Source of the DNA: an uncultured delta proteobacterium
Lineage (GTDB): Bacteria > Desulfobacterota > Binatia > Binatales > Binataceae
Assembly (NCBI GenBank): GCA_963717005.1
Contig: OY970324.1
Coordinates: 10,518-74,517, forward strand
Direction of reading: 5' to 3'
DNA length: 64,000 bases
Shown: positions 16,405 through 47,974 of the stretch, piece by piece
Layout of the letters: each line of letters starts with the position of its first letter
Numbering within the stretch: the stretch's first letter is position 1
Made by a program: the position numbers and the translations under genes
The notes under the pieces: model-generated
What the model saw: the letters and a program-made list of their open reading frames with translations, nothing else
Told to the model about the DNA's origin: nothing
The model's database searches: none

Positions 16405-16482
16405 CCGGTCTGAGTCTCCTATACCTATCCCGATTTGCGGCTAGCGACCACGTCGCCAGCCGCGGGAGAGGTGAATTCCATT

Positions 16483-44551: not shown

Positions 44552-44655
44552 CGTCGCCTCTCCTGTGTTTCGATTGTACGAAAACTTCTTCGGTTCTAGC
44601 CGAGTCGGGTTTCGTTATGCAACTGAAACCGGAAGAGTGCGCGGCCGACGATGTA

Positions 44656-45033
44656 TCAGTGACGCGGAATTTCGATTGGGCCCGGGCAGAGGCTCACTTC
44701 CGGCGGGCGACGCGAGATCGTCAACGACAGGCCCGGCGCGTAAATCGGAGCGCCGGCCTGCAAGTCTGCCATCTGCTGAAAGCGAGGGTCGGCGCCTTGC
44801 GCTATTGAGTTGGGCGCGCATTTGATGCCGCGGGCAACGTCGCGAGCACGCAAATCGTTTTCAAAACTTTTATTTTCGTCAGAAGCGCCAGCGGATGCGG
44901 ATGTCGCGCGCTGATACCCGCAATCCATCGAGCCGGAGCACCCTGAGCCCCATGCGCGGTCCAACGCCCAGCCAAGTGCGACGAAGAGCACGATGGTCAT
45001 CCAGAACCCGAGCGAAAAAATCATCTTGGCCAT
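44656..45033 (-). CDS. hypothetical membrane-anchored/exported small protein
   Basis: An N-terminal hydrophobic helix. AGAGGAAG RBS before the ATG at 45033. Confidence 0.45.
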   Translation of the reverse strand: MAKMIFSLGFWMTIVLFVALGWALDRAWGSGCSGSMDCGYQRATSASAGASDENKSFENDLRARDVARGIKCAPNSIAQGADPRFQQMADLQAGAPIYAPGLSLTISRRPPEVSLCPGPIEIPRH

Positions 45034-45189
45034 GGTCGTCTTCCTCTTGCGATCGAGGGAGCATTTTCTGTGCCCGTACGAACCGCCAAGAGAATTTCGA
45101 TCCGGCCTGCGCCGCGAGTCCTGTAGATTTTACCGCGCGCCGAAATATCGCGAACTTTTCGCGCTCACCGATCTGTAACTCTGACCCGC

Positions 45190-46488
45190 TTAATGATTCG
45201 CCACCTCGAGCTCGATCCTGTCCGCATACTTCTTGATCGCCGCCTCGCGCAGCCGCGGTATGTGCTGCGTCGGGAACAGACCGTCGGTCGCCTTATAGTC
45301 GCGCAACACCTGGCGCGCGAGCGTAATCTTGTGGACCTCGGTCGGCCCGTCGGCCAGTCCCATGTGGAAGCTCTGGATCACCTGCTCGACGAACGGCATC
45401 TCGCCGGTGGCGCCAAGCGATCCGTGCAGATGCAGCGCGCGCGCCGCCACGTCATGGAAGACCTTGGGCATCAGCGCCTTCACCGCCGCGATATCCTTGC
45501 GCACTTTCAGATAGTCCTTGTACCGATCGATCTTCCACGCCGTGCGCAGCACCAGCAGCCTGAATTGTTCGATCTCCATCCACGAGTCCGCAATCTTTTC
45601 CTGCACCATCTGCTTGTCCGCCAGGCGCGATCCCTGCGTCGTGCGCGACAGCACCCGCTCGCACATCATGTCGAACGCCTTGCGCACCTGGCCGATCGTG
45701 CGCATCGCATGATGAATCCGGCCGCCGCCGAGGCGCGTCTGCGCGACCACGAACGCGCCGCCGCGCGGTCCCAGCATGTGGTCCTTCGGCACCTGAACGT
45801 CTTCGTAGCGGATGTACGCGTGACTGCCGCCGCGCTCGTGCGTGCCGACGCCAAGGTTCTTCAAAATGTTCACGCCCGGAGTGTCCTTCGGCACGATAAA
45901 CATCGACATGCGGTTGTATTCCTTGGCCTCGGGGTCCGTCACCACCATCACGATGAGGAACGACGCGAGATGCGCATTCGACGAGAACCACTTCTCGCCG
46001 TTGATCACCCAGCTATCGCCCTTCAGCTCCGCATGCGTCTTGAACACTTTCGGATCGGCGCCGCCCTGCGGCTCGGTCATCGAGAAGGCCGACACGATTT
46101 CGTTGTCGAGCAGCGGCTGCAGATATTTTTTCTTCTGCTCGGGCGTCCCGTAATGCGCGAGGATCTCGGCGTTGCCCGAGTCGGGCGCCTGGCATCCGAA
46201 CACGATCGGCGCGTAGGTCGCGCGCCCCAGAATTTCGTTGATTAGTCCGAGCTTGACCTGCCCATAGCCCTGACCGCCGAGCTCCGGCCCGAGATGGCAC
46301 GCCCACAGCTTGCGCTTTTTCACCTCGGCCTGAAGCGGCCGCACCAGTGCGTTGCGTTTCGGATCACGCACGTCGTAAGGATGGCAATCGAGCACGAATT
46401 CGAGCGGCTCGACCTCCTCGCGCACGAATTTTTCGATCCAGTCGAGCTCCTTCTGGAACTCCGGCTCAGTTTCAAAATCCCAACTCAT
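45190..46488 (-). CDS. acyl-CoA dehydrogenase
   Basis: The start is at the internal MSWDFETEPEF with a GGAGG RBS. MTEPQGGADP is the ACAD signature. Confidence 0.85.
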   Translation of the reverse strand: MSWDFETEPEFQKELDWIEKFVREEVEPLEFVLDCHPYDVRDPKRNALVRPLQAEVKKRKLWACHLGPELGGQGYGQVKLGLINEILGRATYAPIVFGCQAPDSGNAEILAHYGTPEQKKKYLQPLLDNEIVSAFSMTEPQGGADPKVFKTHAELKGDSWVINGEKWFSSNAHLASFLIVMVVTDPEAKEYNRMSMFIVPKDTPGVNILKNLGVGTHERGGSHAYIRYEDVQVPKDHMLGPRGGAFVVAQTRLGGGRIHHAMRTIGQVRKAFDMMCERVLSRTTQGSRLADKQMVQEKIADSWMEIEQFRLLVLRTAWKIDRYKDYLKVRKDIAAVKALMPKVFHDVAARALHLHGSLGATGEMPFVEQVIQSFHMGLADGPTEVHKITLARQVLRDYKATDGLFPTQHIPRLREAAIKKYADRIELEVANH

Positions 46489-46615
46489 GATTGATTCGTC
46501 CTCCGTGTAGGGTGTTGTCCCGCCGGACGCCCGGCTCGGACTCACGAGCGGATTCTCGCCAATGCCGGACGCTTTTACCAGAGCGTCAACAGTGTGGCGT
46601 CAGCTTCTCCATCCT

Positions 46616-46875
46616 AACCTCTCCTTGTCCGAGGAGAGGTCGGCATAAGCCGCGTGAAACGCGGTGTCGCCGGGAGAGGTGCCGCGCCAGACAGCGCAGC
46701 AACGCCTACTCGTCTAATCGCAATTCATAGACACCCGTCCGCCGCCGGACGGCAGCACCACTTCCGTGCAATGGCGCAAAGAAAAACTGTCGTGGTCGCG
46801 ACGGCCGGCTTTGCACCTCTCCCGCCGCGCTCCTTCGGCGCGCGCCGACCTCTCCTCGGACAAGAAGAGGTCAGG
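46616..46875. repeat. about 260-bp intergenic element bounded by nested inverted repeats (outer 25-bp hairpin-forming IR, inner 15-bp IR); MITE-like, or a structured RNA
   Basis: acctctccttgtccgaggagaggtc at 46617-46641 is the near reverse complement of acctctcctcggacaagaagaggtc at 46848-46872. The inner pair is cgccgggagaggtgc and gcacctctcccgccg. Additional small hairpins lie inside. Confidence 0.4.
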
Positions 46876-46951
46876 ATCTGCCTGCGTGCATTCCGATCCG
46901 CCTCTGGAATCGTCTCCCGTACCAAAGCAAGATGACGCTGTAACCATCTCC

Positions 46952-47974
46952 ATGAAACTCTCGATCATCGACCAGTGTCCCGTGCCCGCCGGCTTCACCA
47001 CTGCCGACGCGTTCCGCAACACCATCGAGCTTGCGCGGCTTGCCGATAGCCTCGGCTATGAGCGCTACTGGATCGCCGAGCATCATGCGACCGGCGCGTT
47101 CGCCAGCCCCGCGCCCGAAGTCCTGCTTGCGCGCCTCGGCGCCGAGACTTCGCATATCCGCATCGGCTCGGGCGGCGTGATGCTGCCGCATTACAGCCCG
47201 ATGAAAGTCGCCGAGTGTTTCCGCGTGCTGCATGCGCTCTATCCCGGCCGCATCGATCTCGGCATCGGCCGCGCGCCGGGCGGCAGCCCGCTCGATTCAT
47301 TCGCGCTGCGGCGCGATCGCAGCGCGCAGCAAACCGAAGACGACTTCCCCAAACAACTGCTCGAGCTGATCGCGTTCCTGCACGGCAGCTTCCGTCCCGA
47401 TCACGCTTTCAGCCGCATCGAACTCTCGCCCGCGATGCCCGGTGCGCCCGACGTGTGGCTGCTCGGATCGAGCATGTGGAGCGCGGCCGCCGCGGCGCAG
47501 CTCGGCTTGCCCTACGCCTTCGCGCACTTCATCGATCCCACGCACACGCGCGCCGCCTTCGAGTACTACCGCGCGCACTTCAAGTCCTCGAGCGAGCTGT
47601 CCGCACCCACCGCAATTTTGGGAATCAGCGCTATCTGCGCACCGACTGACGCCGAAGCCCAACGCATGGCGTCGAGCGTGCGGCTCTTCGTGCGTCACGC
47701 GCGCAATGGAATGCGTGGCCCGATTCCCACACCTGAGGATGCGCTCGCCGAGTTGGGACCCGGCCCGCTACCGGCCGACGTGATGATGCGCGAGACGGGC
47801 GAATGGCCGCGCGCGATCATCGGCACGCCCGACCACGTCCGCGATACGCTGGTGGATATCGCAAGCGTCCTGCATCTCGACGAGGTGATGCTGGTGACGG
47901 TCGTTCACGACCATCAGGCGCGGATGCGCTCGCACGAGCTGCTCGCCAAGGCTTTCAACCTCACGCCGCGCTGA
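46952..47974 (+). CDS. LLM-class (luciferase-like) flavin-dependent oxidoreductase
   Basis: MKLSIIDQCPV...YERYWIAEHH...GVMLPHYSPMKVAE. Confidence 0.8.
   Translation: MKLSIIDQCPVPAGFTTADAFRNTIELARLADSLGYERYWIAEHHATGAFASPAPEVLLARLGAETSHIRIGSGGVMLPHYSPMKVAECFRVLHALYPGRIDLGIGRAPGGSPLDSFALRRDRSAQQTEDDFPKQLLELIAFLHGSFRPDHAFSRIELSPAMPGAPDVWLLGSSMWSAAAAAQLGLPYAFAHFIDPTHTRAAFEYYRAHFKSSSELSAPTAILGISAICAPTDAEAQRMASSVRLFVRHARNGMRGPIPTPEDALAELGPGPLPADVMMRETGEWPRAIIGTPDHVRDTLVDIASVLHLDEVMLVTVVHDHQARMRSHELLAKAFNLTPR

Follow-up and report, generated by a model that had tools for sequence, protein, structure and literature searches.

Within a 64,000-nucleotide stretch of DNA (hereafter the window) from an uncultured delta proteobacterium of the Binataceae (assembly GCA_963717005.1, contig OY970324.1, positions 10,518 to 74,517 of the forward strand), a 267-bp element with inverted-repeat ends is located in the 464-bp spacer between an acyl-CoA dehydrogenase (acd) gene and a divergently oriented luciferase-like monooxygenase (LLM) gene (Table 1). 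An earlier inspection of the letters of the window (the sequence-only reading) had described a 25-bp outer inverted repeat enclosing a 15-bp inner one, and had proposed a miniature inverted-repeat transposable element (MITE), a structured small RNA (sRNA), or a regulatory structure for the LLM gene. An inverted-repeat search found the outer repeat to be real, but with arms (46611-46644 and 46844-46877) of 34 nt that are 94% complementary and thus longer than described. The inner repeat is also present (46668-46682 and 46813-46827, 14 of 15 positions complementary) but does not stand alone, as in a consensus of 66 copies the outer and inner repeats form a single terminal inverted repeat (TIR) of ~73 nt, which consists of a hairpin, a divergent second loop (loop-2), and then GGGAGAGGTGCAACGC. 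The loops of the two arms are mutually reverse complementary, so the arms are truly inverted. The small GC hairpins that had been noted lie within the two loop-2 segments. The window arm has the stem CCTCTCC/GGAGAGG and the purine box GGGAGAGGTG, with a second loop of ~31 nt. A 25-mer of the arm occurs at two sites only in the window, both within the element (0 expected), and no second element of this sort was found in the rest of the window; a lone extra GGGAGAGGTG at 16464-16473, with no hairpin beside it, is most likely due to chance. As judged by nhmmer matches, the plus strand of the element corresponds to the sense orientation of a DUF559 nuclease gene that is carried by full-length relatives and is the main subject of the sections below.

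Table 1. Positions of the element, its parts, and the neighboring genes and conserved blocks in the window.
Feature	Position	Strand	Basis or remark
acd gene, acyl-CoA dehydrogenase	45190-46488	-	
Context block, acd side, GGATTCTCGCCAAT...TTTACCAGAGC	46550-46584		Outside the element; kept in filled and empty orthologous loci (alignment)
Whole element, 267 bp	46611-46877	+	ORF-less copy of the Binatia repeat family; BLAST query 12-279 = window 46611-46878
Left TIR, ~73-76 nt	46611-46686	+	End ATCCTA, stem-loop, loop-2, purine box with CAACGC-like tail; self-alignment of consensus arms and inverted repeat
Left terminal stem-loop	46617-46640	+	ACCTCTCC (46617-46624), loop TTGTCCGA, GGAGAGGT (46633-46640); pyrimidine run and purine run
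Small GC hairpin in left loop-2, GCCGCG-TGAAA-CGCGGT	46649-46665	+	Sequence; minimum free energy structure
Left purine box GGGAGAGGTG	46672-46681	+	The earlier "inner" repeat; counterpart of the third run GGGTGAGGGG of boxC/triplex motifs; 89% conserved
Interior segment	46687-46758	+	Homologous to the DUF559 5' flank of ORF-bearing copies (to ~20 nt before the ATG); 75% identity to consensus
Variable centre, junction of the missing ORF, then start of the 3'-flank-like part	46759-46812	+	51% consensus identity at profile positions 151-180
Right pyrimidine box CACCTCTCCC	46814-46823	+	Complement of the purine box; sequence
Small GC hairpin in right loop-2, CGCGC-TCCTTCG-GCGCG	46826-46842	+	Sequence; alignment of consensus arms; consistently unlike left loop-2
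Right terminal stem-loop, ACCTCTCC - TCGGACAA - GAAGAGGT	46848-46871	+	Stems 46848-46855 and 46864-46871; one C.A mismatch (46854/46865)
Context block, LLM side, TCTGGAATCG...CCAAAGCAAGATGA	46903-46935		Outside the element; alignment; also upstream of LLM orthologues with a different upstream gene (L205, L207)
LLM gene, luciferase-like monooxygenase	46952-47974	+	

The predicted fold of the element is very stable relative to shuffled sequences on both strands (z about -9.5) because of the inverted repeat itself. The statement that no open reading frame (ORF) lies inside the element is not literally correct, since mechanical ORFs do overlap it, but the 66 copies have no reading frame in common. 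A stop-free frame exists in 60 of the 66, yet its strand and phase vary by copy, copy lengths are even over length modulo 3, and 54% of shuffled sequences likewise have an open frame; a conserved ORF inside the element was therefore rejected. A scan for sigma-70 promoters and intrinsic terminators returned 0 sites, and Rfam gave no match at the gathering score over the whole window and none at E<=1 in the region of the element.

To examine the locus in related genomes, a homologue search was used in place of exact look-ups of the window acd and LLM proteins, which returned no record. The best homologue of the LLM protein (89%) is from a named member of the Binataceae, and these homologues led to further contigs. 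In another Binatus species (locus L047), the orthologue of window positions 44648-47963, with 84% nucleotide identity, carries the element in the corresponding position. Three lineages retain the divergent acd/LLM pair with a much shorter spacer, namely L206 (180 bp), L211/212 (137 bp, where the called N-terminus is longer), and L213/214 (192 bp); subtraction of the element from the window spacer gives 464-268=196 bp. A profile built from the 66 copies did not detect the element in any of L205-L214, leaving the window and L047 as the only filled loci. Since the LLM loci of five lineages lack the element, it was inserted at the window locus, and because the more distant lineages are the empty ones, a gain in the ancestor of the window genome and L047 is the simplest reading. 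Every orthologous acd/LLM spacer retains two conserved blocks, with consensus GGATTGTCGCCAAT..TTTACCAGAGC next to acd and YNTGGAATC..CAAGCAAGATGA next to LLM, which are probably operators or promoters of the two genes. As these blocks flank the element in filled loci and are retained alike in empty ones, the element lies between the upstream regions of the two genes. The copy in the window disrupts neither block and most likely serves no dedicated purpose here. No duplication is visible at its junctions. Elsewhere, L041 lacks an element that is present in L010 and L068, but that junction is too diverged to read.

A dispersed repeat family in Binatia

One genome per species was scanned for exact matches to an 18-mer from the arm (CTTGTCCGAGGAGAGGTC). 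Rather than being unique to the window, the terminal sequence has many copies in Binatia genomes: at least 114 stretches carry the 18-mer, nearly all from Candidatus Binatus/Binataceae metagenome-assembled genomes (MAGs), some of which are labelled "uncultured delta proteobacterium", and many of these stretches have a plus-strand and a minus-strand match 190-230 bp apart. BLAST of the window element against the listed loci resulted in at least 84 matches longer than 150 bp, with ~75 copies covering the element. Among the matches listed, ~66 non-redundant full-length copies are 74-83% identical end to end, interior included, and conservation drops sharply right beyond ATCCTAACC...GGTTAGGAT. Arm-to-arm spacing falls into classes of ~190-200 and ~220-230 bp, and shorter derivatives (130-175 bp) and solo hairpins are also seen. 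Single genomes have the element in at least 10-17 separate 8-kb blocks. A blastn search of PLSDB plasmids found no copies of the element, with chance 29-nt matches in VirB10 genes as the only matches.

Identity to the consensus is highest in the hairpins (96-99%). In this value the conservation of one arm is inflated because the exact hairpin 18-mer served as bait, and the full-length filter favors copies in which both arms are well preserved. The purine box follows with 89%, then the interior with 75% and the centre with 51%. Of the two hairpins in each copy, the less conserved one, which the 18-mer bait did not select, is still 95.8% identical to the consensus. Compensatory changes were counted against shuffled controls. 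The local stem-loops have 8 versus 0.9 (left) and 11 versus 1.9 (right), whereas 9 were observed versus 10.4 between the arms, with 17 versus 13.6 for the inner box. Because the local stems covary and the arm-to-arm stem does not, the constrained unit is the terminal stem-loop rather than a long RNA stem, and by this measure the local stem-loop is the functional unit. The folding and covariance analysis that had been suggested for the element thus supports a stable fold and covariation in the local stem-loops but not in the long-range stem.

The family is old. Pairwise identity between copies reaches 92% at most, which excludes recent bursts within genomes; pairs from the same genome have a mean identity of 79.8%, compared to 78.3% between genomes, and copies at orthologous sites are 79% alike, compared to 78% for random pairs, with flanks of 80-90%. 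This low and uniform pairwise identity indicates an old family without a recent burst; even so, the hairpins have kept close to the consensus.

Several further observations were made on individual copies. At two pairs of orthologous sites (L007 2424-2686 and L066 3124-3390; L025 and L077), the element appears to be in opposite orientation relative to its flanks. Recombination between the arms may have inverted it in situ, or the flip could be an artefact of orienting a near-palindrome. In one MAG (CAVQAR010000009), a 1.46-kb segment is duplicated 40 kb apart with 97% identity (L068 1561-3019 and L074 3623-5080), and has a solo hairpin at one border and a full element at the opposite one. A contig labelled uncultured Gemmataceae (L050, MFD01633.bin.2.60) is 94.8-98.3% identical over 0.65-1.6 kb to the Binatus MAG contigs L052, L071, and L113 and bears both the element and an IS481-type insertion sequence (IS); mis-binning of the contig or a very recent transfer is the probable explanation.

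DUF559 genes between inverted hairpin modules

At three Binatia loci, the element ends are farther apart and enclose a DUF559 gene, which is intact in L075 (119 aa) and L087 (121 aa) and frameshifted in L057. This full-length form measures ~500-650 bp, with a gene product of ~120 aa. The flanked gene matches the Pfam model for DUF559 (PF04480; E=5e-41, 139 bits, compared to a cut-off of 20.6) and no other Pfam family at the curated score cut-off. It also matches the NCBIfam YcjD model (E=5e-32), at 110 bits well under the 218-bit equivalog cut-off. The closest and only solved relative found is 3hrl (E=4e-25), an uncharacterised "endonuclease-like protein" from N. gonorrhoeae. Scans of the protein with PADLOC and PHROGs returned weak nuclease-domain matches alone and no known defence system. 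The DUF559 family has been grouped with the Vsr T:G mismatch endonuclease and a Vsr-like group I intron homing endonuclease (PMC3424549).

When the profile of the ORF-less copies was compared to L115 and L075, positions 2-148 matched the 5' flank of the gene, ending ~20 nt before the ATG, and positions ~160-268 matched the 3' flank of the ORF forms. As the profile aligns in two flank pieces, the window element corresponds to the full-length unit minus its ORF. No DUF559 coding remnant was found in the centre of the ORF-less copies, as the profile matches end at the ORF borders. The stop codon of the DUF559 gene lies inside the C box in L087, L075, and E. coli ycjD.

The association between the gene and the hairpins was then examined more widely. 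A metagenome scan with the two DUF559 proteins yielded 80 loci with 46-100% identity, which were chosen by protein and are thus unbiased for hairpins, and hairpins were called with a finder that demands complementarity. Of the 63 loci with at least 200 nt on each side, 42 are flanked by a pyrimidine-run/purine-run hairpin on each side and 19 on a single side, and 2 lack it altogether, compared to a background of 0.16 hairpins per kb away from the gene. Hairpin positions peak at -70 to -75 and +10 to +30 relative to the DUF559 gene. The stems vary by lineage yet are self-complementary (CCTCTCC/GGAGAGG, CCTCCCC/GGGGAGG, CCCTTCCC/GGGAAGGG, and CCCTCCCCC/GGGGGAGGG). A G-rich box is located on the gene-proximal side of 55 out of 61 upstream and 55 out of 67 downstream hairpins, compared to 10 and 15, respectively, on the distal side. 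In 78 of the 80 loci the matched ORF segment is free of internal stops, and at least 79 of the 80 aligned sequences retain D55, E66, D68, and H72. DUF559 genes are flanked likewise in S. meliloti, Azospirillum, Deinococcus, Sphingomonas, Pseudanabaena, and Synechocystis; in N. gonorrhoeae the motif is found downstream of the gene only, and the DUF559 gene on a PCC 7002 plasmid has no flanking motif. By these genomic comparisons, the order of hairpin and box, DUF559 gene, and box and hairpin is conserved across phyla. Two metagenome contigs (L173 and L153) have arrays of four to nine boxC-like hairpins, with a spacing of ~36-50 nt, flanking the DUF559 gene.

Relation to the E. coli boxC motif

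The boxC/PIT/triplex repeats have been known since the early 1990s, to our knowledge with no established function, origin, or associated gene. The module that flanks the more distant DUF559 relatives (CCCTCTCCC-loop-GGGAGAGGG-TTA-GGGTGAGGGG) is identical to the E. coli repeat described as boxC, as PIT, and as the TMECO "intrastrand triplex motif". There are 23 copies of boxC/TMECO in MG1655, five of which occur as inverted A+B pairs (Holder et al. 2015, PMC4666352). Triplex motifs are present in >260 genomes and are strictly intergenic, transposase or integrase remnants were "never found" beside them, and PIT elements had earlier been reported to show neither promoter nor terminator activity and not to block the polymerase in vivo (PMC4666352). 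That paper mentions neither an endonuclease nor ycjD, and a limited literature search found no paper that ties DUF559 or ycjD to boxC, which is not proof of novelty. boxC is also listed in PMC2267715.

The modules of E. coli (CCCTCTCCC-TTGA-GGGAGAGGG-TTA-GGGTGAGGG) and of Binatia locus L075 (CCCTCTCC-TTGTCCG-AGGAGAGGG-TTA-GGGAGAGGTG) have the same order: a pyrimidine run, a loop, a complementary purine run, a short loop, and a second purine run. The compact form with the TTA loop occurs in L075, L016, and L087, and the window arms have a 31-nt insertion in its place. Like boxC, the window family is multi-copy and frequently forms inverted pairs in which the hairpins are the outer and the G/C boxes the inner parts, a layout confirmed for an E. 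coli pair from the hrpB-mrcB spacer. The window copy, too, is intergenic. The members of E. coli pairs differ consistently (type A with type B), as do the two loop-2 segments of the Binatia arms. The two also differ. The second loop of the window module is ~31 nt long and contains its own small hairpin, compared to 1-6 nt in the triplex definition; the Binatia arms are ~73 nt, and the spacer between modules is ~130 nt, conserved, and derived from gene flanks, compared to ~15 nt in E. coli; and the full-length Binatia forms have a DUF559 gene between the modules, whereas no gene has been tied to boxC in the literature searched. We tentatively regard the end module of the window element as a lineage-specific version of the boxC/PIT/triplex motif repeats.

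E. coli ycjD represents a partial version of the arrangement: the gene ends in ...CACCCTCTCCCTGA, and a canonical boxC is located ~170 nt downstream. In the E. coli K-12 ycjD-fabI spacer (L195 3250-3420, minus strand), the last ~45 nt of ycjD are duplicated ~55 nt past the stop codon, followed by a degenerate G box (GGGTTAGGGG) and, ~60 nt farther, the canonical boxC. The duplicate resembles a remnant of a second DUF559 3' end.

Origin and maintenance of the family

We consider it fairly probable that the window element is an old, fixed, ORF-less, and non-autonomous partner of a DUF559 nuclease, comparable to a REPIN, within a palindrome-ended family of the Binatia. The full-length unit consists of the stem-loop and purine box, the gene for a ~120-aa DUF559 (YcjD-like, Vsr-fold PD-(D/E)XK) endonuclease, and the inverted module. 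From this arrangement we infer that the nuclease acts on the hairpins: it would recognise the terminal stem-loop and box as DNA, and a nick or cut at the module would lead to copying or biased repair of module-bounded segments, a route that would leave no target-site duplication. The relation of the DUF559 gene to the doublets would then parallel that between RAYT transposase genes and REPIN doublets, in which REP doublets accompany a REP-associated tyrosine transposase of the IS200/IS605 Y1 type. Both systems have one small gene between two inverted short palindromes, with gene-less doublets far more numerous, and both show strongly conserved palindromes, long vertical persistence, and no target-site duplication. 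The two differ in that the Binatia protein is a Vsr-fold PD-(D/E)XK nuclease rather than a Y1 transposase, with its role in mobilisation being putative here, and in that the Binatia palindrome is a polypyrimidine/polypurine hairpin with a third purine run. No RAYT was found between the Binatia palindromes, where the flanked gene is DUF559; no RAYT search was made elsewhere in the genomes.

A broader proposal, which we put forward as a possibility that falls somewhat short of probable, is that boxC/PIT/triplex repeats in general serve YcjD-like DUF559 (Vsr-fold) endonucleases as recognition sites and as non-autonomous partners, in a REPIN-RAYT-like relation that extends over the Binatota, Pseudomonadota, Deinococcota, and Cyanobacteriota. 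In such a relation, the nuclease may either spread the doublets or hold the hairpins at consensus.

Several points weigh against these proposals. The ORF is present in only 3 of ~110 Binatia copies among the matches listed, there is no DUF559 gene in the 64-kb window, and the ORF-less form may have arisen by loss of the ORF or may have preceded its gain. There is no sign of recent movement, given the 92% maximum for any pair and the near-equal identity of orthologous and random copies. At the acd/LLM locus, filled and empty sites have diverged (76-88% protein identity) and provide no clean junction, and the filled sites are ~20-28 nt longer than the 268-bp core accounts for. The 31-nt second loop places the window module outside of the strict triplex-motif definition with its 1-6-nt loops. 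Finally, the link between DUF559 and the motif is a genomic association, and physical linkage alone would correlate protein lineage with hairpin variant.

An alternative that we regard as unlikely is that the repeats are a host-maintained DNA or RNA motif, involved in supercoiling or nucleoid structure, transcription insulation, or protection of mRNA ends, with DUF559 as a Vsr-like repair nuclease that holds the hairpins at consensus through biased mismatch repair. The strong conservation of the hairpins (96-99%) relative to the interiors (51-75%), the compensatory changes in the local stems, the grouping of DUF559 with Vsr, the lack of recent copies, the finding that orthologous copies are no closer than paralogous ones, and the neat placement of the window copy between two conserved upstream blocks are all consistent with such maintenance. 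However, the site is empty in related lineages and the neighbors vary from copy to copy, which argues against any requirement at the level of the locus; no promoter- or terminator-like signal was found, and PIT elements are reported to lack such activities (PMC4666352); and the origin of ~100 copies of a 260-bp composite unit is left unexplained.

The mobile-repeat idea was the nearest of the three candidates in the sequence-only reading, given the many copies and the empty orthologous sites, but its MITE form, in which the element would be a deletion derivative of an IS with a DDE transposase, mobilised in trans, and DUF559 an occasional passenger as in mobile insertion cassettes, is quite unlikely. 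The element does resemble a MITE in its small size (267 bp), its TIR (a 34-nt core within ~73 nt), its lack of a conserved ORF, its dispersed copies, and its presence or absence at orthologous sites. It also resembles Correia/NEMIS and ERIC MITEs, which likewise measure 100-300 bp, end in inverted repeats, are predicted to fold into a long hairpin, and occur as many intergenic copies with insertion polymorphism. In contrast to these, the Binatia element is without a target-site duplication or a transposase-bearing parent, and its compensatory changes are found in the terminal stem-loops rather than in an arm-to-arm stem. In the 66 copies, no direct repeat exceeded permuted controls at any offset from 0-13 or length from 2-9, although the copies are old, and no transposase gene with ATCCTAACCTCTCC... 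ends was found in ~900 kb of Binatia loci, where the only coding forms with matching ends encode the DUF559 nuclease. The tight integration of the DUF559 gene, down to the stop codon inside the C box, and the persistence of the gene-plus-hairpin layout down to 46% protein identity across phyla are unexpected for a passenger. On the evidence of its ends and copies, the window element is not a classical MITE.

Two insertion sequences near the repeats were considered as autonomous partners and rejected; as both have their own ends, they are invaders. The first is an IS3-family element (orfA/orfB, ends TGGGGTTGCCCCG.../...CGGGGCAACCCCA) in Candidatus Binatus SPRUCE 224 (L022 1932-3196), which has TG...CA-type ends and its own 3-bp duplication (AAC) and is located inside a short element copy of ~135 bp, so the repeats are themselves targets of other mobile DNA. 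The second is an IS481/rve-type element with its own inverted repeats and a 415-aa transposase, which is repeatedly found beside the hairpins. In L113 (3813-5157) it starts ~7 nt past a terminal hairpin, and after it comes another near-identical element whose first hairpin is missing; segments of L052 (147-1534), L050 (5-1364), and L093 (3-1390) have the IS481-type element in common with L113, including part of the same hairpin. This placement looks like hairpin-targeted insertion, as has been reported for IS1397 at REP sequences.

It is also conceivable, but improbable, that the ORF-less doublets are pre-existing targets of homing, with a free-standing DUF559 homing endonuclease that cuts their centre and is copied in by way of the ~70-150-nt homology of the arms. 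The ORF-less form is almost exactly the ORF form minus the ORF, and a 128-bp ORF-less form in L016 has its right-hand flank in common with the ORF form in L075, such that the two appear to occupy one site in two species; the left flanks, however, are not syntenic. The protein belongs to the same fold group as Vsr and the EDxHD/I-Bth0305I-type homing endonucleases, which includes a group I intron homing endonuclease (PMC3424549), but the DUF559 gene differs from both in that it has no adjacent cytosine methyltransferase, is not within an intron or intein, and is bounded by inverted hairpin modules. The centre is the least conserved part of the element (51%) and differs in length between the two spacing classes and the 130-175-bp forms, and would therefore be a poor specific target. 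ORF forms are also rare, and homing leaves the spread of the doublets themselves unexplained.

The remaining readings, a structured sRNA or a cis-regulatory RNA or DNA structure specific to LLM or acd, are consistent with the very stable predicted fold and the divergent promoter region but are highly improbable, and are already refuted at the level of locus specificity: arm-to-arm compensatory changes are not in excess, Rfam has no match, the same element is present at ~100 unrelated loci in both orientations and is missing upstream of the LLM orthologues of five lineages, and the conserved upstream blocks of acd and LLM lie outside of it.

Taken alone, the feature in the window is an inert copy of a repeat in a soil bacterium that has not been cultured, and in the annotation of Binatia genomes these elements should be masked as repeats rather than called as sRNAs or regulatory sites. 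Its follow-up has nevertheless provided a testable idea, in that DUF559/YcjD, a family without an assigned function, is systematically embedded between inverted copies of boxC/PIT/triplex motifs. If the nuclease does act on the motif, this would explain both DUF559 and boxC, and E. coli, with ycjD and its 23 boxC copies, would be a ready system in which to study it. Such an activity would also place a second, mechanistically different arrangement of a gene with palindrome doublets next to that of REPIN and RAYT.

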